A stretch of 24,041 nucleotides of DNA from Bdellovibrionales bacterium. Its GTDB lineage: Bacteria > Bdellovibrionota > Bdellovibrionia > Bdellovibrionales > UBA1609. The notes beneath the pieces are model-generated. The model made no database searches and was not told the origin of the DNA. It saw only the letters and a program-made list of their open reading frames with translations. Position numbers and translations under genes: made by a program. The DNA is taken from positions 1-24,041 of the forward strand of contig CBDHDF010000001.1 of the NCBI GenBank assembly GCA_965261545.1. The letters are read 5' to 3'. Below are positions 3,872-23,744 of the stretch, one piece after another. How positions within the stretch are numbered: the stretch's first letter is position 1; each line of letters opens with the position of its first letter.

Positions 3872-4029
3872 GTAACATTCATGGGGGCGCCTTGCTTCCC
3901 CACCCACGCCCATGAATCTTTCTAGGCCCCCACTTCTTTGCACGAAGCAACTCGGTGGACAGCTTCGCTGGTCTATATAATTGGCCTCTTTTAGTTACTC
4001 TGGACTTTTGATTGTATTTTTGTCATGTA

Positions 4030-4250
4030 TGATTCCGATACAATAAAGGATAAAGCAATAACATTATTGGAAGGTGATAAGATGAGTGGCCGTTGAATAG
4101 ATTGGTAATTTTAATTCCGTGAAGTAACATGGTCTTGAGCTTTGGATCGAACCCACGCATGTACCTGCACTCTGAGTGTATGGACGTATAGTAAGTTGAC
4201 CTATTTTCGCTTTAGAATTTATGGCAAAATCCCAAGGCTCTAGTTTTATC
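4030..4250 (+). ncRNA. Candidate IS110 bridge RNA in the ~410-bp upstream non-coding region (boundaries approximate; also present in copies B and C)
   Basis: IS110-type elements such as IS621 encode a guide RNA upstream of the recombinase. Short segments match the target (TGAATAG 4094-4100) and the donor junction (AGTAACAT 4123-4130; CCCACGCATGT 4152-4162). Structure not computed. Confidence 0.55.
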
Positions 4251-4713
4251 ACCTTCTTTTTTTCTAACAGAAAGGAGGAGTCATGTGGATATTATTTATA
4301 GTTCTGTTTGTGGAATAGATGTTCATCAACATATGTTGATGTGTACGATTGTCAAAGTGGAAGACGGTAAGAAGAAGTTTTTCACAAAAGAGTTCAAGAA
4401 TTTTCCAAAAAATTTTCCTAGAATGCGCTCTTGGATGAAGCCACATAAGGTTGAGAGAGTTCTTTTTGAGAGCACAGGGATTTATTGGAATTCTTTATAC
4501 GATGATTTGACAGAAAAAGGTTATGAAGTAGATGTTATCAATGCCTTTCATGTCAAAAATATTACTGGTAAAAAAACTGACGTGTTGGATAGCCAGTGGA
4601 TTGCAGAGCTTGGTGCTTGTGGTCTTCTGCTGAATTTCACGAGTTTGACCCACTGAATTTCACGAAGTTTGACCCACCCCTCAGTCAGTCAATTTGAGGT
4701 CCAATTTTGAATT

Positions 4714-5121
4714 TCACGGTGGCTCAAACTTTGTCAATTTAAACCTTCTTTTTTCTGCTGACTCAGTAACTTTTACACCCTCAATGTCACGATGTCCCAA
4801 CGGTGGGTTAAGGCTTATTTGCCAGAATGTTAGATGCCAACTAAAATTGGCCACTTTGTCATTGAGAATCTCGGCCCTTCCCATTTTTGAGGTTTCAATG
4901 GAGGGTTTTTCGATGGGGATGTTGAACCCATGGCTCAAAATGGCAGAGAATAGCGAGCCAGTTATCCACAAATTTATCCATGGTGACGCTGCGTCTGTGA
5001 CCCCGATGTCTATCAACGCAGCGCTGCCGTGGGTAAATTTTGTGGATAACTGGCGGGTACATGATTCAATAGTTCCGATGGAGTGTCTCCCGATGGTGTC
5101 TTCTAAGGTCTGCTTTTGCAT
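4714..5121 (-). CDS. Possible 135-aa hypothetical ORF downstream of istB
   Basis: ATG with good RBS (AAGGAG) immediately after the istB stop; no recognisable motif, and it runs through a DNA palindrome. Confidence 0.25.
   Translation of the reverse strand: MQKQTLEDTIGRHSIGTIESCTRQLSTKFTHGSAALIDIGVTDAASPWINLWITGSLFSAILSHGFNIPIEKPSIETSKMGRAEILNDKVANFSWHLTFWQISLNPPLGHRDIEGVKVTESAEKRRFKLTKFEPP
4957..5054. repeat. 98-bp imperfect palindrome containing TTATCCACA boxes
   Basis: GCCAGTTATCCACAAATTTA...TAAATTTTGTGGATAACTGGC; homologous to 11379-11476 and 20769-20866. Confidence 0.9.
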
Positions 5122-5130
5122 GGATTCTCC

Positions 5131-5859
5131 TTAAATCGTCTTTCTCTGCCTAAATGAGCTTCCAGACATGGCTATTTTGATAGCTTGAGAGGTTATGCGA
5201 TCCATAATAGCTTCACAAACGATGGGATCCCCAATGACTTCACTCCAATTTTTTATTGGAAGTTGGGTTGTAAGAATGAGGCTCAGGTCAGGGCCTCGTT
5301 CATCAATCACATCGTAAAGGTCTTGATATTGGCTGGAGGTAAGGGGTTTGATACCAAAGTCATCCAACACAAGTATAGAGATTGATTTTAGCCTTTTAAG
5401 GAAGTTTAGATATGTCCCCTGGGCTCTTTCTAAGTTGAATTTTTCAACAAGAGTATTCATTCTGAAGAACTGAGTGGAAAAACCCTGGCGACAGGCGTGA
5501 TTGCCTATGGCACAAGCCAAATATGACTTTCCAACACCTGTTGGGCCAGAGATAATTATATTTTGACCTCTTTGAGCAAATCTCATAAGGGCTAGATCAC
5601 TCAAAACTCTTCGATCGACTCCTCGGCTGGGCTTGGTTTCAAAGGCCTCAAGGCTTGCTTTTTGCTTCAAAGCTGCTCTTTTGATAAGTCTTAAGACCTT
5701 CTGATTGTCACGATGGATTTTCTCGTCCTCAAAGATGACATTTAGAAAATCTTCGTAACCAAGATCCTGCTCCTCAGCTTCTTTGAGCCTCTGGCTCAAG
5801 GTTGCTAAAACTCCCCTCATTTTTAATATCTCTAATAAATTTTCTGTTTGTTTAATCAT
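5131..5859 (-). CDS. istB: IS21-family helper AAA+ ATPase IstB
   Basis: Walker A GPTGVGKS, Walker B LVLDDFG, plus LILTTQLP and EAIMDRI. Confidence 0.95.
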   Translation of the reverse strand: MIKQTENLLEILKMRGVLATLSQRLKEAEEQDLGYEDFLNVIFEDEKIHRDNQKVLRLIKRAALKQKASLEAFETKPSRGVDRRVLSDLALMRFAQRGQNIIISGPTGVGKSYLACAIGNHACRQGFSTQFFRMNTLVEKFNLERAQGTYLNFLKRLKSISILVLDDFGIKPLTSSQYQDLYDVIDERGPDLSLILTTQLPIKNWSEVIGDPIVCEAIMDRITSQAIKIAMSGSSFRQRKTI

Positions 5860-5939
5860 TTTCTTCTCCTATACGACCTCTCTTATGGAGGTCCAAATGA
5901 CCCGTTAGGTGGTTGAGAACCACCCACCGGGGCTATGGA

Positions 5940-7454
5940 TCAGTGCCAAGTATTCTCCCAGTGCCCTGAACCTCTTAAGTTTTCATTAGGTTGACGGCAG
6001 ACTCTTGGCTCCTCTTTTCGATGACTTTTTGCTGAAATGACTTTCTCAACTCCACGAACCCTAATGTCACTTAAAGCTGCATCTACAAAAAATGAGCAAG
6101 CCTGCTCCAAAGAAGCTGTTGAATAACGCTTTCTTAGATTGAGTATCCCCTGAACACGGCGAAGATACATAAGCGGATGGCGAGGCTCTTTGATAAGCCG
6201 TTGAGCAACTTTGTGAATGCTTTCTCCAAGGCTTGATGCCTCTTTAAGTACATTTTGTGGCGTTTGCTCTAAAATGGCCCGGTGGGACTCAGGGAGATGA
6301 GATTTTGTCGTAAAATAGCGCCCTCGACTTCCCTGGGGGATGTGATGTATCGCCACCCGCTCTAATTCTGAATAAACCTCCAAGCATTGTTGGCTAATAC
6401 GAATATCTAATTTCTTGCCGCGATGCTTATAAGGAACAGAGTAAAAATTGTAGTTATATTGAATGTGACAATCCGGATGAACCTTGGCATGCTTCCAGAA
6501 TCCACTCTCATAGCGTCTTTCAGGAAGAGGATTCAATTTTGACTTCTCAAAAGATTCAAACTTCTGTCGACGACTCAACCCATACTTTTTTTGAATACGA
6601 TCATTGAAAATAGCTGCCAAATGCTTCAACTCAGCGTTGATGTCTGCTAGAGAATACATTTGTCGCTCTCTTATCTGGGGCCAAGACCAGCGCCAAAAGA
6701 CTCCAAGGGTATTTTCGATAAGACTCTTGTCTTTGGGATGAGATGGCCTCATCGCCAAAGGAGCCACATTGTAGTGATCACACAAGAGGTGAAAATCAGA
6801 GTTAATATCGGGATCATAAGTATCAGCTCTTGTCACTTGAACCTTTGCGTTATCAAAAGCAATGGTTCCGGTCACACCACCAAAAAACTCAAAACCAGAA
6901 GCTATGGAGGAAAAAACATCTTCCCGCTGCTCTGTTAATGTGGCGCAGGGAAAGAAAAACTGACTCGATGGAAGTATCATCCCAAATAATCGACATTGGA
7001 TGAACTCCCCAGTCTTGGCATCTGTATAGCCAAAACAAGAGTCTTTTCCCTTATAGTCAAACTCACTCCGTTCACCAGGGGTGAATGTCTGGTGCATATC
7101 AAGCTTTATACTTGGGTGCCTCCGACGAAACTCTCTCCAAAAAGAAAGATAACTCACACCGTCAATCTCGGACTGAATATGTCGCTCCCAGTAATGAGCC
7201 AATTGAGTCCCTAGGCTTTGCTTGAGGCGAACATCTGTCCAATTCACCTTGGATGACCATGGGGCTTGGTAGGGCCCATGCGACCCCTTTGAGCGGCTGT
7301 TAGGGCCTCCGGGACTATCCTTCACATACTTCTTCACAGTGTTCCGACTAACACCCATAGCTCGAGCTATTTGTCTCGAACTGAGTCCAAGCTCTATGTA
7401 TTTCTTAATATTGTTGATCATTCTTGCTCCTTTTTTCTTACCTTGTTTGCCCAT
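5940..7454 (-). CDS. istA: IS21-family transposase IstA
   Basis: N-terminal HTH (SRQIARAMGVSRNTVKKY), PGERSEFDY, FDNAK, PKDKSLIEN, VHPDCHIQY..NFYSVPY; GAGGAGG upstream of the ATG at 7454. Confidence 0.95.
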   Translation of the reverse strand: MGKQGKKKGARMINNIKKYIELGLSSRQIARAMGVSRNTVKKYVKDSPGGPNSRSKGSHGPYQAPWSSKVNWTDVRLKQSLGTQLAHYWERHIQSEIDGVSYLSFWREFRRRHPSIKLDMHQTFTPGERSEFDYKGKDSCFGYTDAKTGEFIQCRLFGMILPSSQFFFPCATLTEQREDVFSSIASGFEFFGGVTGTIAFDNAKVQVTRADTYDPDINSDFHLLCDHYNVAPLAMRPSHPKDKSLIENTLGVFWRWSWPQIRERQMYSLADINAELKHLAAIFNDRIQKKYGLSRRQKFESFEKSKLNPLPERRYESGFWKHAKVHPDCHIQYNYNFYSVPYKHRGKKLDIRISQQCLEVYSELERVAIHHIPQGSRGRYFTTKSHLPESHRAILEQTPQNVLKEASSLGESIHKVAQRLIKEPRHPLMYLRRVQGILNLRKRYSTASLEQACSFFVDAALSDIRVRGVEKVISAKSHRKEEPRVCRQPNENLRGSGHWENTWH

Positions 7455-7506
7455 AGACACCTCCTCGTTAATGCGTAGCGCAGAAAGAATATCTATGAAG
7501 ATCTAA

Positions 7507-7606
7507 GTGGGTCAATGTTTGGTGAAATTCAGTGGGTCAAACTTCGTGAAATTGGGTGGGTCAAACCAGGTGAAATTGGGTGGGTCAAACTAGGTGAAAT
7601 TTTGCA
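7507..7606. repeat. Four ~24-bp tandem repeats GTGGGTCAAAC-N4-GTGAAATT (putative IstA binding sites)
   Basis: Units start at 7507, 7532, 7556 and 7580; two inverted counterparts at the other end (~4633-4677). Multiple terminal repeats are typical of IS21. Confidence 0.88.
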
Positions 7607-9102
7607 CTTCTAAGAGCTAGCTTCATTCCTCCACGTGAGATTCGTTCTATTAGACTTTTGGCTCGTTATCGTACAAAAACGATCCGCCAAATATCTTCGG
7701 AACAAAATCGTATGTATAAGGTTCTTGAATATTCAGGCATTCGTTTAACCTATGCAATGTCTAAAGCTGACTGCGTATCTGGTATGGCCATGATTCGTGC
7801 CATAGCTAATGGAGAGAGATCAGTTTCTAAATTGATGTCTCTTGCCAGAGGGTCTTTACGTCAAAAGACCGAAGAATTTTCTTACGCCCTGTCGGGAAAG
7901 ATGACGGAAGAAAATCGTTTTGTTCTTCAACGCATTCTTGATCGAATAGATTTTTTGAAAAAAGAATGCTCTCAAATTGAAGAAGAACTTTTCATTCGTA
8001 TGAAACCCTATGAAAGGCAGTGGCATCTACTCCAGACTCAATGCCGTTTCCTTAAGAAAAATCTCTTGAAATTATTAGATAAATCGACAAGAATAAGACT
8101 TGTTTTATTTTACACCCAACCCTCAACCAAGGAGTAAGTCACATGCAATCCAATATTGATCTCGAAAGCCCCCAAATGACGAGTTCGCGTCACAGATGAC
8201 CATTTTATTCTACCAAAACTTGATTCTTCCTTCAAGCCAGAGCACCTTGTCGATCCAGAAAAACAAAAAAGGAATCGAAAATTTAATCCTCAAATTTTCT
8301 TTTTTACTATTATCTATCTTATTTCCGGAACAAATTACGAAGGCTACCAAATCGCTCTTAAGACGGTATGGACTCATTTTGGTGACCTGCTTCTCATGCC
8401 AGTCAAAAGCAGTCTCAGCAAGATACGTCAAAGTATTTCTTACCTATTTTTTAAAAATATCTTTGAATCTCTGATTACAGACTACGAACCATTGAGAAAA
8501 ACGTTTCATGGCTTTTATATCTATGCCATAGATGGTGTTAGCTGACAATTAAAATGCCCCACCGTCGCCAATGAAAAGTGGCCACTTTTCAGAGGAGGAC
8601 CTATGGTGATTTTTGGCATTGTCAACCGAGACGCATATAATCAATTGATATTACTCATAAAAAGGCTCCGAGCTGATAAGAACTCCTTTTGGGTTCTTGT
8701 CGACCTGGAAAGGGGCTCCGTGTTGGAGAGTCCTTCCATGACAGCCTATTCAGGTTCCATATTTGTCATTTGTAGACTGTTTCTGGATTTCAATGAGGTT
8801 AAATATATAGTCAAGAAAAGCCTGTTTAGGCTGTGCCCATTTTCTAAAGTATTTAAATTCCACAAGATTCCAACATTTGCCTCAATTTTCATGGAATTTC
8901 TTTCTGAAGACAGGCTTCCCTTAAAGCCGTCGCCAATTAAAATGTCCCACTTTCAATATGGAGGTTGTCGCCAATGAAAAGTGACCAATCTTCAGGGAGT
9001 GTTCAAATACTAGACAATGAAGTCTCTTCTTCTGATATAGATACTAAGCTCACAGAGTCCCTCCCTCTTGCAACTCAAAAGGTTAGCAATGAGGAGGATC
9101 TT

Positions 9103-10569
9103 ATGATTAGTCAATACACTTTCGGCCGCATTCGTGACCTGAGTCACAGTGGTAAAAATAAGACAGAAATATCTCGTGAATTAGGGATCAATCGTAAGAC
9201 GGTGCGCAAGTACTGTGAGTCCAACACCCCACCGAAGTACAAGGCGAGGTCCAAAAGAACTCGCCCAGATCCCCTTAATGGATATATGGATCGGGTGAAG
9301 TACTTTTTGAAGTTGAACCCAAGTAACACCGCCCGTGAAATATATGAGCTATTAGTTGAGGAGGGTTATCGTGGGAGTGAGAGAACGGTTCAGAGAAGAG
9401 TTTGTGAGATTCTTGGTTCTCGCCCCAAGGAGCGTTTTTTCAGCCAAAGATATGATCCTGGAGAACAGGCTCAGTTTGATTTTAAGGAGAAGGTTGCTTT
9501 ACCATTTGCCGATGGTGTTCAGATCGTTCATCTCCATTTTGGAACATTGCCTTGTAGTGGCACCTGTTGGGTTCGTGCCTACCCCTTTCTTGTCTATGAG
9601 TGTTTCATCGATGGGGTGCATGCTTTTTTTGAAAAGATAGGTGGGATGAGTGCGAACATCCGTATTGATAATTTATCTCCCTGTGTGAAGAAAGTTCTTA
9701 AAGGAAATCAGCGAATTTACACCCAATCTTTTGATCGAGCCATCCAATACTATGGATTTAAGGTTCTTCCCTGCCGCGCAGGGAAGGGCTCTGACAAGGG
9801 AGATGTGGAGCGTGATATTCGAACCTTCAGTTCTCGGATAAAAAATATTGTTAGAAACAAAGGAATTGTTTTTAAAGACTGGGATCATTTGAATCAGTTT
9901 TTAGAGTCTTATATGGATCAGCATCAGAGTGACTCCACCAAATCTCGCTTTGAGGAGGAGGCCAAAGTTCTTAAGCCTTTGCCTCCACGAGATAAAGATA
10001 TTCTCTGTAAGGTGAATATTTGTCAAAGTAATGGTTATGGGACTTTGAGAATAGGTAAAACCACATATTCCATACCTGATGAGGTGATCCAAGCTCCCTG
10101 TAAAACCGTACAGGGTCCCTATCATGTCACGATCTATCGTGCAGGAGGGAAGCAAGAAATTGTCGCTCGCCATCAAAGAAAACCTGATGGGGAGCATAGT
10201 CTTCTTCTTGAACATATCCTTCCCTCTTTAGTTCGTAAGCCGCAAGCCATGGTAAGATGGGCTCACCGATCCATTCTTTTTCCAACAAATGTGTTTGAAA
10301 ATTTTTATCAATACCTCAAGCAACAAGATTCAAGCCGTGCCGAGCATGAATATTTAAGAGTTATCAACTTGATTCAGCATGTGAGTTGGCAGGACTTATC
10401 TACAGCCATGGAGCTTCAATTAGAAAGTCGTGAGATTTTCGACTTTAAATCCATAAAAGATTTGCTCTTAGGCAATCCCACCAAAATTAATTTGAATGAC
10501 CAACAAAAACCACTTCAACCTAGATTGTCTCAATATGACAGTCTTGTTCCAAACATAGGAGGTTCTTAA
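9103..10569 (+). CDS. istA: IS21-family transposase IstA
   Basis: HTH ISRELGINRKTVRKY, PGEQAQFDF, IRIDNL, DKGDVERDI; ATG at 9103 follows GAGGAGG (ORF open from 8965). Confidence 0.95.
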   Translation: MISQYTFGRIRDLSHSGKNKTEISRELGINRKTVRKYCESNTPPKYKARSKRTRPDPLNGYMDRVKYFLKLNPSNTAREIYELLVEEGYRGSERTVQRRVCEILGSRPKERFFSQRYDPGEQAQFDFKEKVALPFADGVQIVHLHFGTLPCSGTCWVRAYPFLVYECFIDGVHAFFEKIGGMSANIRIDNLSPCVKKVLKGNQRIYTQSFDRAIQYYGFKVLPCRAGKGSDKGDVERDIRTFSSRIKNIVRNKGIVFKDWDHLNQFLESYMDQHQSDSTKSRFEEEAKVLKPLPPRDKDILCKVNICQSNGYGTLRIGKTTYSIPDEVIQAPCKTVQGPYHVTIYRAGGKQEIVARHQRKPDGEHSLLLEHILPSLVRKPQAMVRWAHRSILFPTNVFENFYQYLKQQDSSRAEHEYLRVINLIQHVSWQDLSTAMELQLESREIFDFKSIKDLLLGNPTKINLNDQQKPLQPRLSQYDSLVPNIGGS

Positions 10570-11351
10570 TGAATCACGAAGAACTTATAGGTTCTCTTAA
10601 AAAACTCCGACTTCCAGCGATGGCGGATGAATATGTTGCAACGGCTAGAGTTGCCGAAAAAACAAAAAAGACGTATGAACAGTATTTAGGTATACTCGTT
10701 CAAAATGAGCTTGCTGACAAGCATTCCCAGAGAGTGAAAAGATTGCTTAAGGGGGCCAAGCTTCCTCAACTTAAATCACTCCAAACTTATAACTTCCAGA
10801 AAAGAACGGGAGTGACAGCTCAGCAAATTAATTGGATGGCAGAGGGAGAGTGGGTCAGAAAAGCCTGTAATGTTGTGTTTTACGGAAGCTTTGGAATGGG
10901 GAAAAGTCATTTGGCCATGTCCCTAGTTCGTTCACTCTGTGAACAAGGCTATCGATGTTTATGGGTCACCACTCATGAACTTATTGAAACAATGCGTGAA
11001 AGCAAGAAAGAACTCTCATTGAATGCTCTTTTTAAGAAATTAGACCGTTTTGATCTTATTGCTTGTGATGAACTTGGCTATACAGCTTCCTGCACAGAGG
11101 GGGCAGATCTTTTCTTTCAATTCATATCTCAGCGATATGAAAGGAAAAGTCTCATGATCACTACAAACTTAACATACTCTGAATGGGATAAGGTGTTTCT
11201 TAACCCTATTACCACCGCTGCTGCTGTTGATCGAATCATTCACAACTGTGAAACCCTCAACATTGAAGGAAAAGAAAGTTGGAGAACCGAATCGGCAAAA
11301 GCCAAGTCTAAACAGAGCAAAGAGGAAAGTTCAACCAAAGAAGTTCATTAG
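10569..11351 (+). CDS. istB: IS21-family helper ATPase IstB
   Basis: GSFGMGKS, IACDELGY, RYERKSLMITTNL, AAVDRIIH; TAATG stop/start overlap with istA. Confidence 0.95.
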   Translation: MNHEELIGSLKKLRLPAMADEYVATARVAEKTKKTYEQYLGILVQNELADKHSQRVKRLLKGAKLPQLKSLQTYNFQKRTGVTAQQINWMAEGEWVRKACNVVFYGSFGMGKSHLAMSLVRSLCEQGYRCLWVTTHELIETMRESKKELSLNALFKKLDRFDLIACDELGYTASCTEGADLFFQFISQRYERKSLMITTNLTYSEWDKVFLNPITTAAAVDRIIHNCETLNIEGKESWRTESAKAKSKQSKEESSTKEVH

Positions 11352-16701: not shown

Positions 16702-18492
16702 ACGGCCCTTTTTAATTTCGCGACAGCGACTATCTAGGCCCCCACTTCTTTGCACGAAGCAACTCGGTGGACAGCTTCGCTGGTCTATATAATTGGCCTC
16801 TTTTAGTTACTCTGGACTTTTGATGGTATTTTTGTCATGTATGATTCCGATACAATAAAGGATAAAGCAATAACATTATTGGAAGGTGATAAGATGAGTG
16901 GCCGTTGAATAGATTGGTAATTTTAATTCCGTGAAGTAACATGGTCTTGAGCTTTGGATCGAACCCACGCATGTACCTGCACTCTGAGTGTATGGACGTA
17001 TAGTAAGTTGACCTATTTTCGCTTTAGAATTTATGGCAAAATCCCAAGGCTCTAGTTTTATCACCTTCTTTTTTTCTAACAGAAAGGAGGAGTCATGTGG
17101 ATATTATTTATAGTTCTGTTTGTGGAATAGATGTTCATCAACATATGTTGATGTGTACGATTGTCAAAGTGGAAGACGGTAAGAAGAAGTTTTTCACAAA
17201 AGAGTTCAAGAATTTTCCAAAAAATTTTCCTAGAATGCGCTCTTGGATGAAGCCACATAAGGTTGAGAGAGTTCTTTTTGAGAGCACAGGGATTTATTGG
17301 AATTCTTTATACGATGATTTGACAGAAAAAGGTTATGAAGTAGATGTTATCAATGCCTTTCATGTCAAAAATATTACTGGTAAAAAAACTGACGTGTTGG
17401 ATAGCCAGTGGATTGCAGAGCTTGGTGCTTGTGGTCTTCTAAGAGCTAGCTTCATTCCTCCACGTGAGATTCGTTCTATTAGACTTTTGGCTCGTTATCG
17501 TACAAAAACGATCCGCCAAATATCTTCGGAACAAAATCGTATGTATAAGGTTCTTGAATATTCAGGCATTCGTTTAACCTATGCAATGTCTAAAGCTGAC
17601 TGCGTATCTGGTATGGCCATGATTCGTGCCATAGCTAATGGAGAGAGATCAGTTTCTAAATTGATGTCTCTTGCCAGAGGGTCTTTACGTCAAAAGACCG
17701 AAGAATTTTCTTACGCCCTGTCGGGAAAGATGACGGAAGAAAATCGTTTTGTTCTTCAACGCATTCTTGATCGAATAGATTTTTTGAAAAAAGAATGCTC
17801 TCAAATTGAAGAAGAACTTTTCATTCGTATGAAACCCTATGAAAGGCAGTGGCATCTACTCCAGACTATACCTGGAATTGACGAATTAAGTGCAGCGCTT
17901 TTGATTGCAGAAATAGGAGGCAATGTGTTAGCTGACAATTAAAATGCCCCACCGTCGCCAATGAAAAGTGGCCACTTTTCAGAGGAGGACCTATGGTGAT
18001 TTTTGGCATTGTCAACCGAGACGCATATAATCAATTGATATTACTCATAAAAAGGCTCCGAGCTGATAAGAACTCCTTTTGGGTTCTTGTCGACCTGGAA
18101 AGGGGCTCCGTGTTGGAGAGTCCTTCCATGACAGCCTATTCAGGTTCCATATTTCTCCTTTGTAGACTGTTTCTGGATTTCAATGAGGTTAAATATATAG
18201 TCAAGAAAAGCCTGTTTAGGCTGTGCCCATTTTCTAAAGTATTTAAATTCCACAAGATTCCAACATTTGCCTCAATTTTCATGGAATTTCTTTCTGAAGA
18301 CAGGCTTCCCTTAAAGCCGTCGCCAATTAAAATGTCCCACTTTCAATATGGAGGTTGTCGCCAATGAAAAGTGACCAATCTTCAGGGAGTGTTCAAATAC
18401 TAGACAATGAAGTCTCTTCTTCTGATATAGATACTAAGCTCACAGAGTCCCTCCCTTTTGCAACTCAAAAGGTTAGCAATGAGGAGGATCTT

Positions 18493-19959
18493 ATGATTAG
18501 TCAATACACTTTCGGCCGCATTCGTGACCTGAGTCACAGTGGTAAAAATAAGACAGAAATATCTCGTGAATTAGGGATCAATCGTAAGACGGTGCGCAAG
18601 TACTGTGAGTCCAACACCCCACCGAAGTACAAGGCGAGGTCCAAAAGAACTCGCCCAGATCCCCTTAATGGATATATGGATCGGGTGAAGTACTTTTTGA
18701 AGTTGAACCCAAGTAACACCGCCCGTGAAATATATGAGCTATTAGTTGAGGAGGGTTATCGTGGGAGTGAGAGAACGGTTCAGAGAAGAGTTTGTGAGAT
18801 TCTTGGTTCTCGCCCCAAGGAGCGTTTTTTCAGCCAAAGATATGATCCTGGAGAACAGGCTCAGTTTGATTTTAAGGAGAAGGTTGCTTTACCATTTGCC
18901 GATGGTGTTCAGATCGTTCATCTCCATTTTGGAACATTGCCTTGTAGTGGCACCTGTTGGGTTCGTGCCTACCCCTTTCTTGTCTATGAGTGTTTCATCG
19001 ATGGGGTGCATGCTTTTTTTGAAAAGATAGGTGGGATGAGTGCGAACATCCGTATTGATAATTTATCTCCCTGTGTGAAGAAAGTTCTTAAAGGAAATCA
19101 GCGAATTTACACCCAATCTTTTGATCGAGCCATCCAATACTATGGATTTAAGGTTCTTCCCTGCCGCGCAGGGAAGGGCTCTGACAAGGGAGATGTGGAG
19201 CGTGATATTCGAACCTTCAGTTCTCGGATAAAAAATATTGTTAGAAACAAAGGAATTGTTTTTAAAGACTGGGATCATTTGAATCAGTTTTTAGAGTCTT
19301 ATATGGATCAGCATCAGAGTGACTCCACCAAATCTCGCTTTGAGGAGGAGGCCAAAGTTCTTAAGCCTTTGCCTCCACGAGATGAAGATATTCTCTGTAA
19401 GGTGAATATTTGTCAAAGTAATGGTTATGGGACTTTGAGAATAGGTAAAACCACATATTCCATACCTGATGAGGTGATCCAATCTCCCTGTAAAACCGTA
19501 CAGGGTCCCTATCATGTCACGATCTATCGTGCAGGAGGGAAGCAAGAAATTGTCGCTCGCCATCAAAGAAAACCTGATGGGGAGCATAGTCTTCTTCTTG
19601 AACATATCCTTCCCTCTTTAGTTCGTAAGCCGCAAGCCATGGTAAGATGGGCTCACCGATCCATTCTTTTTCCAACAAATGTGTTTGAAAATTTTTATCA
19701 ATACCTCAAGCAACAAGATTCAAGCCGTGCCGAGCATGAATATTTAAGAGTTATCAACTTGATTCAGCATGTGAGTTGGCAGGACTTATCTACAGCCATG
19801 GAGCTTCAATTAGAAAGTCGTGAGATTTTCGACTTTAAATCCATAAAAGATTTGCTCTTAGGCAATCCCACCAAAATTAATTTGAATGACCAACAAAAAC
19901 CACTTCAACCTAGATTGTCTCAATATGACAGTCTTGTTCCAAACATAGGAGGTTCTTAA
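18493..19959 (+). CDS. istA: IS21-family transposase IstA
   Basis: Two amino-acid differences from 9103-10569. Confidence 0.95.
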   Translation: MISQYTFGRIRDLSHSGKNKTEISRELGINRKTVRKYCESNTPPKYKARSKRTRPDPLNGYMDRVKYFLKLNPSNTAREIYELLVEEGYRGSERTVQRRVCEILGSRPKERFFSQRYDPGEQAQFDFKEKVALPFADGVQIVHLHFGTLPCSGTCWVRAYPFLVYECFIDGVHAFFEKIGGMSANIRIDNLSPCVKKVLKGNQRIYTQSFDRAIQYYGFKVLPCRAGKGSDKGDVERDIRTFSSRIKNIVRNKGIVFKDWDHLNQFLESYMDQHQSDSTKSRFEEEAKVLKPLPPRDEDILCKVNICQSNGYGTLRIGKTTYSIPDEVIQSPCKTVQGPYHVTIYRAGGKQEIVARHQRKPDGEHSLLLEHILPSLVRKPQAMVRWAHRSILFPTNVFENFYQYLKQQDSSRAEHEYLRVINLIQHVSWQDLSTAMELQLESREIFDFKSIKDLLLGNPTKINLNDQQKPLQPRLSQYDSLVPNIGGS

Positions 19960-20741
19960 TGAATCACGAAGAACTTATAGGTTCTCTTAAAAAACTCCGA
20001 CTTCCAGCGATGGCGGATGAATATGTTGCAACGGCTAGAGTTGCCGAAAAAACAAAAAAGACGTATGAACAGTATTTAGGTATACTCGTTCAAAATGAGC
20101 TTGCTGACAAGCATTCCCAGAGAGTGAAAAGATTGCTTAAGGGGGCCAAGCTTCCTCAACTTAAATCACTCCAAACTTATAACTTCCAGAAAAGAACGGG
20201 AGTGACAGCTCAGCAAATTAATTGGATGGCAGAGGGAGAGTGGGTCAGAAAAGCCTGTAATGTTGTGTTTTACGGAAGCTTTGGAATGGGGAAAAGTCAT
20301 TTGGCCATGTCCCTAGTTCGTTCACTCTGTGAACAAGGCTATCGATGTTTATGGGTCACCACTCATGAACTTATTGAAACAATGCGTGAAAGCAAGAAAG
20401 AACTCTCATTGAATGCTCTTTTTAAGAAATTAGACCGTTTTGATCTTATTGCTTGTGATGAACTTGGCTATACAGCTTCCTGCACAGAGGGTGCTGATCT
20501 TTTCTTTCAATTCATATCTCAGCGATATGAAAGGAAAAGTCTCATGATCACTACAAACTTAACTTACTCTGAATGGGATAAGGTGTTTCTTAACCCTATT
20601 ACCACCGCTGCTGCTGTTGATCGAATTATTCACAACTGTGAAACCCTCAACATTGAAGGAAAAGAAAGTTGGAGAACCGAATCGGCAAAAGCCAAGTCTA
20701 AACAGAGCAAAGAGGAAAGTTCAACCAAAGAAGTTCATTAG
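19959..20741 (+). CDS. istB: IS21-family helper ATPase IstB
   Basis: Protein identical to 10569-11351. Confidence 0.95.
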   Translation: MNHEELIGSLKKLRLPAMADEYVATARVAEKTKKTYEQYLGILVQNELADKHSQRVKRLLKGAKLPQLKSLQTYNFQKRTGVTAQQINWMAEGEWVRKACNVVFYGSFGMGKSHLAMSLVRSLCEQGYRCLWVTTHELIETMRESKKELSLNALFKKLDRFDLIACDELGYTASCTEGADLFFQFISQRYERKSLMITTNLTYSEWDKVFLNPITTAAAVDRIIHNCETLNIEGKESWRTESAKAKSKQSKEESSTKEVH

Positions 20742-20866: not shown

Positions 20867-21643
20867 TTTTACCGTACTATTTGCTCGTCACTCTCGCGGA
20901 GCTTTAGACATTAGCTGCGCCAAGGAATCCTGAAAAATACTCCATTTACCTCTGCCATAGGGCTGAAGGATGCATTTGGGGTCATGCCAAAAGTGGTGGG
21001 CAGAAAATCATTCCTCAGAATCTTGTGGCATAGTCCGAGTTAAATGATGAGCAAAATAAAGACACTTGACTAAACTCTGAACGAAGAATAACTAAATCAG
21101 TACATCATCAACTGGCCGTTTTTCATTGGCGACGGCTTCTAAAAATGGCCAATTTTAATTGGCGCCTAACACAATGTGAAGTCTTTTAAAAATAAAGGAA
21201 ATTTTTGCTCCTGGATGGGGATTTGCCCATCCAATAATGAGAGCGCAGGAAAAAAAAAGTCTTCACGAACGAGGAAAGCGAACACATATGTGAAATCGTT
21301 GGTATGTGAGATGGCCAATAGTGCTATTAAGACGAATTCACAATTCAAAGGCAAATACCAATCACTTGTTATAAGGCGTGGGCACAAGAGATCAGTGATT
21401 GCCGTTGGTCACAAAATGATGGGAGTTGTTTATTCAGTCATAAGTAATGACACCCCCTACAAAGACCCTGGAATTGACTATGAAAAGCTCATGGTGAAAA
21501 AAAATGCACCAAGGTGGATTAGAGCGTTAAAAAAGTATGATTTCATGTAATGTAGGATGATTTAAAAACTCGGACATTTGAAAAAATTCGAAGAACGGAT
21601 AGTGGATTCGTGCGTCCAAACTACCCCGGAGATTCATAGTAAC

Positions 21644-23345
21644 ATTCATGGGGGCGCCTTGCTTCCCCACCCACGCCCATGAATCTTTCTAGGCCCCCAC
21701 TTCTTTGCACGAAGCAACTCGGTGGACAGCTTCGCTGGTCTATATAATTGGCCTCTTTTAGTTACTCTGGACTTTTGATGGTATTTTTGTCATGTATGAT
21801 TCCGATACAATAAAGGATAAAGCAATAACATTATTGGAAGGTGATAAGATGAGTGGCCGTTGAATAGATTGGTAATTTTAATTCCGTGAAGTAACATGGT
21901 CTTGAGCTTTGGATCGAACCCACGCATGTACCTGCACTCTGAGTGTATGGACGTATAGTAAGTTGACCTATTTTCGCTTTAGAATTTATGGCAAAATCCC
22001 AAGGCTCTAGTTTTATCACCTTCTTTTTTTCTAACAGAAAGGAGGAGTCATGTGGATATTATTTATAGTTCTGTTTGTGGAATAGATGTTCATCAACATA
22101 TGTTGATGTGTACGATTGTCAAAGTGGAAGACGGTAAGAAGAAGTTTTTCACAAAAGAGTTCAAGAATTTTCCAAAAAATTTTCCTAGAATGCGCTCTTG
22201 GATGAAGCCACATAAGGTTGAGAGAGTTCTTTTTGAGAGCACAGGGATTTATTGGAATTCTTTATACGATGATTTGACAGAAAAAGGTTATGAAGTAGAT
22301 GTTATCAATGCCTTTCATGTCAAAAATATTACTGGTAAAAAAACTGACGTGTTGGATAGCCAGTGGATTGCAGAGCTTGGTGCTTGTGGTCTTCTAAGAG
22401 CTAGCTTCATTCCTCCACGTGAGATTCGTTCTATTAGACTTTTGGCTCGTTATCGTACAAAAACGATCCGCCAAATATCTTCGGAACAAAATCGTATGTA
22501 TAAGGTTCTTGAATATTCAGGCATTCGTTTAACCTATGCAATGTCTAAAGCTGACTGCGTATCTGGTATGGCCATGATTCGTGCCATAGCTAATGGAGAG
22601 AGATCAGTTTCTAAATTGATGTCTCTTGCCAGAGGGTCTTTACGTCAAAAGACCGAAGAATTTTCTTACGCCCTGTCGGGAAAGATGACGGAAGAAAATC
22701 GTTTTGTTCTTCAACGCATTCTTGATCGAATAGATTTTTTGAAAAAAGAATGCTCTCAAATTGAAGAAGAACTTTTCATTCGTATGAAACCCTATGAAAG
22801 GCAGTGGCATCTACTCCAGACTATACCTGGAATTGACGAATTAAGTGCAGCGCTTTTGATTGCAGAAATAGGAGGCAATGTGAAGTCTTTTAAAAATAAA
22901 GGAAATTTTTGCTCCTGGATGGGGATTTGCCCATCCAATAATGAGAGCGCAGGAAAAAAAGTCTTCACGAACGAGGAAAGCGAACACATATGTGAAATCG
23001 TTGGTATGTGAGATGGCCAATAGTGCTATTAAGACGAATTCACAATTCAAAGGCAAATACCAATCACTTGTTATAAGGCGTGGGCACAAGAGATCAGTGA
23101 TTGCCGTTGGTCACAAAATGATGGGAGTTGTTTATTCAGTCATAAGTAATGACACCCCCTACAAAGACCCTGGAATTGACTATGAAAAGCTCATGGTGAA
23201 AAAAAATGCACCAAGGTGGATTAGAGCGTTAAAAAAGTATGATTTCATGTAATGTAGGATGATTTAAAAACTCGGACATTTGAAAAAATTCGAAGAACGG
23301 ATAGTGGATTCGTGCGTCCAAACTACCCCGGAGATTCATAGTAAC
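21644..23345 (+). mobile_element. IS110-family element, tandem copy C (uninterrupted, 1702 bp)
   Basis: Complete unit between GTAAC at 21639-21643 and 23341-23345; no TSD and no terminal IRs, as expected for IS110. Confidence 0.93.
22052..23252 (+). pseudogene. IS110 recombinase copy C, frameshifted in a poly-A run
   Basis: A7 at 22954-22960 versus A9 in copies A and B; restoring A9 gives a 400-aa protein. Confidence 0.85.
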
Positions 23346-23744
23346 TATTCAGGGGGTGCTGCATTAATTCGAACAATTTTTTTAAAAAAAGTATAAAAAT
23401 TCTTGACAAGTTTTTGAAGCAAACGACCTCTTTCATTTGTTCTTTATCGAATATGTTCCTGCATATGCCTTAAACTCTCTGAGAGCCATAGTATTGAAAG
23501 ATTGTGAAACATAGGTCGCGGGGGGCACTTCTCATTCCTTTTGCTTCTTAGAACGAATCCTAGTGCATTTTTTTTAATGAAAAAAAGGCATGTTAATATT
23601 TTCATAAGGTAAGTATGAAAATAGAAAATATTGACGTGTCTTCAGCCATAAATAAAATCAGGAAGCTTCTTAAGAAAGAGAAGTCCCTTTCTCCCGCTTT
23701 TATTGTGGCCATTGAGTTGTTGATCAAAATCATCACTATTCTAG
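23341..23744 (+). mobile_element. Left part of an IS66-family (ISBst12-like) element
   Basis: Starts GTAACTATTCAG (IS66 termini begin GTAA) and is followed by an IS66-like transposase N-terminus. Confidence 0.7.

Follow-up and report, generated by a model that had tools for sequence, protein, structure and literature searches.

An IS110-family insertion sequence of a Bdellovibrionales bacterium with a very probable bridge RNA of mirrored layout directed at the tips of an IS66-family element

The window, by which we mean the whole stretch of 24,041 nucleotides analysed here, comes from a Bdellovibrionales genome of 4.3 Mb in 11 contigs and is a nest of insertion sequences that includes three copies of one IS110-family element. 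This element is an insertion sequence of ~1.71 kb which is present in about 35 copies in the genome, and its transposase carries the domains DEDD_Tnp_IS110 (PF01548, 4.8e-23) and Transposase_20 (PF02371, 4e-21) and scores 245.5 bits, with a cut-off of 140, against the NCBIfam model “IS110 family RNA-guided transposase” (NF033542). Genome-wide counts give 35 full leaders, 37 right ends and 35 exact copies of 4088-4205. Fifteen left-right end pairs lie 1707-1713 bp apart, with the 400-aa frame intact in 4 of the 15, and the full 400 aa of the transposase are found at 9 places in a genome search. The parts of the window that are needed in what follows are listed here.

4285, 17097 and 22052: transposase starts of IS110 copies 1, 2 and 3.
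4285-4632, + strand: first 116 codons of the copy 1 transposase, interrupted by a nested IS21-like element.
3872-3876, + strand: GTAAC common to the target and the element at the left junction of copy 1, placed by comparison of 35 leaders.
3874-3875, + strand: crossover (core) AA, placed from variant junctions and from its invariance in nine homologues.
3877-3917, + strand: left-end terminal hairpin ATTCATGGGGGCG..CGCCCATGAAT, beginning with the right donor half, which is similar to the IS66 repeat.
3954-4018, + strand: 65-nt segment including TATAAT (3979-3984), 95-98% identical to a different repeat of ~50 copies.
4088-4201, + strand: conserved core of the predicted bridge RNA, within a covariance-model match at 4080-4209.
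23341-23358, + strand: occupied target, an IS66-family terminal repeat GTAACTATTCAGGGGGTG that follows without a gap on the right end of IS110 copy 3.

Several other frames and units share the window. A 781-aa frame on the minus strand (116-2461) carries both a DruA (Druantia) domain (1.4e-35) and a DDE_Tnp_1 transposase domain (5.6e-21), and three IS21-like units, each a large frame followed by an IstB-like frame, lie inside or beside IS110 copies at 4633-7640, 8603-11351 and 17993-20741, two of them being near-identical direct repeats with frames of 534 aa and 260 aa. In IS110 copy 3 the transposase frame is broken in the 22952-22960 region by a run of seven A residues where intact copies (e.g. 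L001:715-1917) have nine, which is either a homopolymer sequencing error or a slippage-prone switch of the transposase. Eight of the 15 full-length copies end after 319 aa, the length at which copy 3 stops, the cause having been inspected in copy 3 only.

The ends of the element are sharply defined by comparison of its copies. Divergence among the 35 leaders begins exactly upstream of GTAAC-ATTCATGGGGG, the 37 right ends finish in ..GGAGATTCATA-GTAAC (..ATTCATA-GTAAC), and the junction between the right end and the left end (RE-LE) of the element reads ..ATAGTAACATTCATGG. Variant junctions, TTAAC on the left and GTAAG on the right, restrict the exchange to TAA, and the core is placed at AA because these two bases do not vary in either of the two sense guides described below across the nine homologues. 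As in the IS110 family, a short core is common to both junctions (here within GTAAC), terminal inverted repeats are absent and insertion is site-specific; comparison of the left and right ends by eye revealed no repeat common to both. Homologues have nnTCATGA..ATGAAAG at the position of the left-end hairpin, and downstream of the stop codon there are only about 100 nt. The left end GTAACATTCATGGGGGCG itself resembles the IS66 target GTAACTATTCAGGGGGTG. Head-to-tail junctions between two IS110 copies that have one GTAAC in common occur 10 times in the genome, and partial duplications of the right end, in which CTACCCCGGAGATTCATAGTAA is repeated, occur twice; the window junctions that belong to these two classes are at 21641 and 13235.

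The segment at 3954-4018 is part of an extra stretch which is missing from the IS110 leaders of homologues, and because these leaders do not have it the segment looks like a module that was acquired by, or is common to, two mobile elements. In the one inspected copy of the other ~50-copy repeat, a gene for a Mutator-family (IS256-like) transposase lies nearby on the opposite strand. The TATAAT at 3979-3984 may serve as a promoter; a promoter scan returned nothing either at this position or at the RE-LE junction, and no terminators were found.

The target is a second insertion sequence, of 1715 bp, with an 18-bp terminal inverted repeat GTAACTATTCAGGGGGTG and with 8-bp duplications around all four of the free copies that were inspected. 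Its 478-aa protein contains DDE_Tnp_IS66 (PF03050, 1.6e-49) and scores 285.2 bits against the NCBIfam IS66 model (NF033517, cut-off 180), so that the element is a member of the IS66 family, whose terminal repeats begin GTAA. The initial annotation had proposed, from the window alone, an IS66 tip in which only GTAAC is constant on the left, and the IS66 identity of the target and the varied DNA to the left of GTAAC bear this out. Of the 37 IS110 right ends, 15 adjoin TATTCAGGG, 10 adjoin the left end of another IS110 copy, 2 adjoin partial right-end duplicates and 10 adjoin other sites, some of which match the right flank poorly; TATTCAGGGGG is part of GTAACTATTCAGGGGGTG, the 18-bp repeat of the IS66-family element. 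The insertions are found at both IS66 ends. The right flank reads GTAA followed by CTATTCAGGGGG, inside which lies CTATTCA, and the DNA to the left of GTAAC is whatever happens to flank the IS66 copy and is therefore variable.

The genome contains 52 sites with TATTCAGGGG, of which 32 are preceded by GTAAC, and an IS110 right end lies on 14 of these 32. A second group of tips reads GTATC-TATTCAGGGGGG (13 copies) or, in one case, CTATC, and none of these 14 is occupied by an IS110 insertion. Near-cognate off-target sites retain parts of CTATTCA. One IS110 copy (C10:1009936 and C10:1020936 in genome G000) lies inside the leader of another copy, exactly at ATAGTAAG, which is the DNA for the left-donor guide (the equivalent of 4188-4195 in the window); this off-target site matches the left half of the donor, not the target.

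The evidence for a structured RNA in the leader comes from comparison with homologues. A scan of metagenome contigs with an alignment of 45 proteins gave 80 related loci at 32-48% identity; for the eight most similar of these (41-48%) the leader can be aligned to window positions of about 4066 to 4205. A single-protein scan of genome contigs found no close relative, a clade-alignment scan for close relatives gave just pieces of 24-53% identity, and 40 related genomes yielded three matches at 32-34% identity. The proteins of the closest relatives are 67-80% identical, and the covariation data all come from homologues of 33-48% identity. The nine leaders (the window and the eight homologues) were aligned with MAFFT, the alignment was folded with RNAalifold, and a covariance model was built from the same nine sequences.

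RNAalifold places three helices, at 4088-4092/4130-4134, 4103-4119 and 4160-4186. In the unfitted MAFFT alignment the basal stem 4088-4092/4130-4134 is paired in 93.3% of cells with two compensatory changes, C-G in the window being replaced by U-A in homologues and by A-U in locus L074. In the model-fitted alignment 96.9% of cells are paired and 14 of the 17 pairs show compensatory changes, a result equalled by none of 500 shuffles, and G-U pairs fix the strand of the RNA. The covariance model finds all three copies in the window with the same score (93.6 bits, E 1.5e-28), the matches at 16892-17021 and 21847-21976 being identical to that of copy 1, and it matches 48 of 92 other loci (E<=0.01), always on the transposase strand and upstream of the gene. 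The target loop (4088-4134) thus comprises a basal stem enclosing two strands around a hairpin, and the donor loop (~4148-4201) has a hairpin, which covaries, and two strands; a basal stem for the donor loop was found neither by eye nor by RNAalifold on 9 and 64 sequences, and RNAalifold predicts no stem at the CGAACCC motif (4148-4154). Rfam has no family that reaches its gathering score here, the sole match at E<=10 being a chance snoRNA at E 8.8. The sequencing runs that carry the stretch comprise five of DNA type from two studies, with none of RNA type among those listed. The parts of the RNA, with its four loop strands labelled J1 to J4, are the following.

4088-4092, + strand: 5' strand of the target-loop basal stem, GGCCG, pairing with 4130-4134.
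4093-4102, + strand: J1, target-loop 5' strand, whose UGAAUAG (4094-4100) is antisense to the CTATTCA found in the IS66 repeat.
4103-4119, + strand: target-loop distal hairpin UGGUAAUUUUAAUUCCG, five pairs, all with compensatory changes, 98.9% paired.
4120-4129, + strand: J2, target-loop 3' strand UGAAGUAACA, containing GU, the core AA (4126-4127) and CA.
4130-4134, + strand: 3' strand of the target-loop basal stem, UGGUC, covarying.
4148-4154, + strand: invariant CGAACCC motif at the entry to the donor loop, seen as invariant alignment columns.
4152-4162, + strand: J3, the 5' strand of the donor loop, CCCACGCAUGU, antisense at 9 of 11 positions to the start of the left end, ACATTCATGGG.
4160-4186, + strand: donor-loop distal hairpin, seven pairs, five with compensatory changes, 98.2% paired.
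4187-4197, + strand: J4, the 3' strand of the donor loop, in which AUAGU and AA (4188-4194) equal the right end ..ATAGT-AA in sense.

Among 1000 shuffles of the leader, an exact 7-nt match arises to the left donor in 273 cases, to the right donor in 197 and to the right target in 222, and a 5-nt match to the left target arises in 760. The short matches on which the initial annotation had relied are all present in the window, but taken alone they are no better than chance. What the homologues add is covariation between loop strands and the DNA on either side of the junctions, and three of the four strands display it.

The two 3' strands give long exact matches. In J2 the GU-AA-CA equals GT-AA-CA of the left junction in sense, and in all eight clade homologues the corresponding strand equals the core and the DNA that adjoins the element on its left, over 6-9 exact nucleotides, often extending 1-3 nt into the left end; a match of at least 8 nt between this strand and its own upstream DNA is found at 22 of 35 loci, compared with 1.5% of 1190 non-cognate pairs. 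In J4 the corresponding strand equals the right end plus the core in 6 of the 6 homologues whose right end is on the contig, the strand and the right end changing together (GGTAA, GTTAA, ATTAA, GGCAA), and a match of at least 8 nt to the downstream DNA is found at 20 of 44 loci, compared with 2.3% of 1892 non-cognate pairs. On these comparisons J2, which has the position of the right-target guide and handshake bases (RTG+HSG) of IS621, is assigned as the left-target guide together with the handshake bases, and J4 as the left-donor guide.

The two 5' strands are antisense to the DNA that they match. J1, which is at the position of the left-target guide (LTG) of IS621, is predicted to be the right-target guide in the transposase frame: it matches CTATTCA at 7 of 7 positions, and the match can be extended into the core only by way of a mismatch or a bulged A (UGAAUAG-A-UU). 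In a set of 22 loci, from which a redundant one had been dropped, its cognate right flanks give a mean of 3.45 matches compared with 2.59 for the others, a difference reached by none of 5000 permutations, and register by register (21 loci) the p values range from 0.003 to 0.021; against the donor it gives no signal (p 0.43). The pairing of J1 in the clade homologues is short or irregular, because an unbiased scan of six of them found no consistent right-flank pairing column. J3 is a candidate right-donor guide, matching the left end of the window element at 9 of 11 positions, or 6 of 8, with its last 3 nt doubling as the base of the next hairpin; its covariation with the left end is not robust (p 0.38, with a best p of 0.022 in one of seven registers).

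Taken together, the ends of the element, its target, the conserved fold of the leader and the covariation of J2, J4 and J1 with the flanks lead us to regard it as very probable that 4088-4201 is a bridge (guide) RNA of the IS110 element, in which J1, J2 and J4 are guides, J3 is probably one, the target is an IS66 tip and the layout is the mirror image of that of IS621. The order of the guides in the transposase frame is right-target, left-target, right-donor, left-donor. On the left side of the target only GT and the AA core are predicted to be read, and specificity would therefore rest on TGAATAG, because the left flank varies beyond GT. A role of this kind for TGAATAG as right-hand guide had been suggested from the window alone, and the covariation of J1 with the right flank agrees with it.

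It is improbable that the mirrored polarity reflects a convention, or a wrong homology map between the window and IS621, instead of a biological difference. The mapping onto IS621 was made by eye, without an alignment tool, and one would expect so common a layout to have been remarked upon, but the contrast can be stated without any alignment. In the available portions of the IS621 report the junction is printed in RNA sense (..ACAGTAT-CT-TGTATTATCCCTCC-AGTGCAGAG, directly before the RNA start), and because of this the guide which is sense-identical to the right end plus the core, ACAGUAUC, can be seen to lie 5' of the donor hairpin (PMC11208160), whereas in the window the equivalent AUAGUAA lies 3' of the hairpin; the target loop is reversed likewise. 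The alternative register, in which J2, a hairpin and J3 would form the target loop, was rejected, since J3 gives p>0.27 against the right flanks in all registers. In addition, both orders occur in nature according to the available text of Siddiquee et al. (PMC11187229).

Still less likely is a reading in which only the sense strands J2 and J4 act as guides, J1 and J3 being structural and the fit of TGAATAG being a coincidence or a sequence read by protein. J2 and J4 are indeed the strands with long exact matches, J3 lacks robust covariation, J1 matches in homologues are short, and a lone 7-mer match is at chance level; against this, J1 covaries with the right flank (0 of 5000 permutations) and not with the donor, every target position conserved beyond GTAA is on the side which J1 would read, the near-cognate off-target sites keep parts of CTATTCA, and J1 stands where the available IS621 text places the left-target guide.

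The map first drawn for this leader is very unlikely to hold as it was written. The initial annotation had taken the RNA to have the IS621 order, with AATAAC (4057-4062), TGAATAG (4094-4100), AGTAACAT (4123-4130) and CCCACGCATGT (4152-4162) as left-target, right-target, left-donor and right-donor guides, with a stem between GGTCTTGA and TCGAACC, and with ATAGTAA (4188-4194) as an alternative donor guide. All of these motifs lie at the positions given, their order is that of IS621, the reverse complement of TGAATAG occurs exactly, as CTATTCA, in the right flank, AGTAACAT and the RE-LE junction agree over 8 nt without a mismatch, and 9 of the 11 positions of CCCACGCATGT fit ACATTCATGGG in reverse complement. 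However, both the conserved RNA and its basal stem lie 3' of AATAAC, which takes this motif out of consideration as a guide, and the covarying stem encloses AGTAACAT and TGAATAG in one loop. AGTAACAT lies in the 3' strand of the target loop, and because the strand homologous to it repeats, in each element, the core and that element's own left flank, it is assigned as left-target guide and handshake bases and not as a donor guide. The proposed stem is paired in just 55.6% of cells in nine homologues with no covariation, and the GGTC of the GGTCTTGA region pairs instead with GGCCG at 4088-4092. The order of the guides is accordingly not that of IS621 when read in the transposase frame. What survives of that map is its central idea that the leader encodes a bridge RNA, now carried by a conserved structured RNA with covarying helices and with loop strands that covary with the flanks, together with ATAGTAA, the alternative it had offered, which coincides with the predicted left-donor guide J4; CCCACGCATGT keeps its standing as a candidate right-donor guide by its position and its 9 of 11 fit, with no robust donor covariation. 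Four of the five segments lie in loop strands, two of their 3' ends reaching 1-3 nt into helices (T4130, and UGU at 4160-4162).

That the leader does no guiding and simply serves the transposase as a 5' UTR or a regulatory structure is scarcely credible, for although the energy of its single-sequence fold is no better than that of shuffles (z 0.22), its loop strands covary with DNA outside the element, which is the signature of bridge or seek RNAs.

If the mirrored bridge RNA is used as its counterpart in IS621 is, its action can be outlined as follows. UGAAUAG of J1 would pair with CTATTCA just inside the terminal repeat of the IS66-family element; GU-AA-CA of J2 would read only GT and the AA core, its last two bases serving as handshake bases for the left end of the element itself; AUAGU-AA of J4 would read the right end of the element, and J3 would probably read the left end. 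By analogy with the IS621 literature, the RNA would be transcribed, bound by the recombinase and employed to bridge the RE-LE junction of the excised circle to an IS66 tip, where the recombinase would exchange strands at AA. The element would then come to lie with the flanking DNA on one side and the IS66 repeat on the other, at either end of the IS66 element and always with its right end toward the IS66 interior. On the inner side an intact IS66 repeat would be re-created, because the right end supplies ..GT-AA, and the outer side would be left with GTAAC-ATTCATGGGGGCG, which resembles the IS66 repeat. This outer end is a plausible target for further copies, and the mimicry of the IS66 repeat by the left end probably explains the 10 head-to-tail junctions or arrays.

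The value of this element as an object of study lies in its being a natural bridge-RNA system that is well delimited and of which a single genome offers about 35 copies together with many natural sites, both on-target and off-target. Specificity appears to be carried by 7 nt on one side of the target, with only 2 nt plus the core on the other, and a single core difference between tips (GTATC as opposed to GTAAC) accompanies a complete absence of insertions, which amounts to a natural single-base contrast. The element also illustrates cleanly how an insertion sequence can home to another's terminal repeat. A further consequence concerns guide assignment in general: if the mirrored polarity is general and unreported, then assignment based on IS621 will be wrong for a large share of IS110 orthologues, and it was exactly through the IS621 analogy that the guide mapping of the initial annotation failed.

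Bridge (guide) RNA systems have been known since 2024 (PMC11208160, PMC11208158), and the available portions of these two papers describe each loop of the IS621 RNA as a stem, a left guide, a stem-loop, a right guide and handshake bases, the guides following one another in the order left-target, right-target, left-donor, right-donor, with the 5' strand pairing with the bottom strand. The window system resembles IS621, as described there, in its DEDD/Tnp recombinase and in an RNA encoded upstream of the gene, in the non-coding end; in its two loops, in each of which a stem is followed by UGG-hairpin-CG with a guide strand on either side of it, except that the donor-loop stem was not found in the window; in guides which include the core, the 5' guide having 7+2 nt and the 3' guide 4 nt followed by two handshake bases; and in a core of the form NT (TT in the window). 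It differs from the same description in that, relative to the genes, the strands which are sense in IS621 (the 5' strands) are antisense in the window and vice versa; in that the core is TT in the opposite-strand frame where IS621 has CT; in having about 130 extra nt between the left end and the RNA, including the segment common to another repeat; in the absence of an evident junction promoter in the scan and of a detected basal stem in the donor loop; and in its target, which is an IS66 terminal repeat and not a REP.

The relation between the two systems becomes simple once “top” is defined as the strand opposite the transposase, and it appears to be only in this frame that the window RNA fits the IS621 scheme closely. 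In the accessible code of BridgeRNADesigner (PMC11208160), the left-target guide is target[:9] in sense, the right-target guide is the reverse complement of target[7:], and the handshake bases are the reverse complement of donor positions 6-7. In the opposite-strand frame the window target is CCCCCTGAATAG-TT-AC, the LTG match has 7 nt, the RTG (the core plus AC) has 4 nt, which is the size given in the available text for wild-type IS621, and the handshake bases CA match donor positions 6-7 (TG). The same portion of code (PMC11208160) accepts TT as an NT core with a warning, since it is not CT or GT. With “top” defined by transposase sense, as it is for IS621 and ISEc21 in the text available, the rule that the 5' strand pairs with the bottom strand does not describe the window, where it is the 3' strands that are sense to the transposase strand.

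The seekRNAs provide a second point of comparison. In the accessible text of Siddiquee et al., the seekRNA of ISEc21, an element of IS110 type which targets IS3-family transposase genes, has its bottom-strand match before its top-strand match, and the IS1111-type seekRNAs have the reverse order (PMC11187229). The window shares with ISEc21, so far as that text describes it, a non-coding region upstream of the gene, one RNA segment for each target strand and a target inside other insertion sequences; it differs in that the match which comes 5' is to the bottom strand in ISEc21 and to the top strand (J1) in the window. The placement of the top-strand match before the bottom-strand match is a likeness to the IS1111-type seekRNAs of ISEc11, ISKpn4 and ISPa11, whereas elements of this type are described in the same text (PMC11187229) as having the non-coding region downstream and long subterminal inverted repeats, and the window RNA is upstream in an element with no end-shared repeat seen by eye. 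The window element does not, on these features, fall within the IS1111 group. Homing to the terminal inverted repeats of another transposon is a further trait with a parallel, since IS4321 and IS5075 reportedly target the terminal repeats of the Tn21 family, as Partridge and Hall are said to have found in 2003; those elements differ from the window element in their downstream non-coding region and long subterminal inverted repeats, the window RNA being upstream.

In the available text of the bridge RNA and IS110 literature, a “reverse order” is mentioned only by Siddiquee et al. (PMC11187229 and preprint), for IS1111 compared with ISEc21, and that text holds no statement of the layout seen in the window, an upstream RNA with reversed polarity; figures in this literature (e.g. 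Durrant Extended Data Fig. 10c) may show such layouts. A plasmid protein search for an E. coli IS110 element gave none among the 40 matches listed. The mirrored polarity itself appears to extend beyond the present element, the same sense relation being found at 22 of 35 and 20 of 44 diverse metagenomic IS110 loci, and because so many diverse loci show it IS621 may represent the minority layout. We put forward, as a tentative proposal that is rather doubtful at present, that the window exemplifies a third, undescribed configuration of the IS110 family, in which an upstream guide RNA would be combined with IS1111-type polarity, the opposite strand being cut first, at a core that is AA/AG in gene sense. 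Such a configuration, if it is real, bears on the mining of orthologues and on the assignment of guides for programming.
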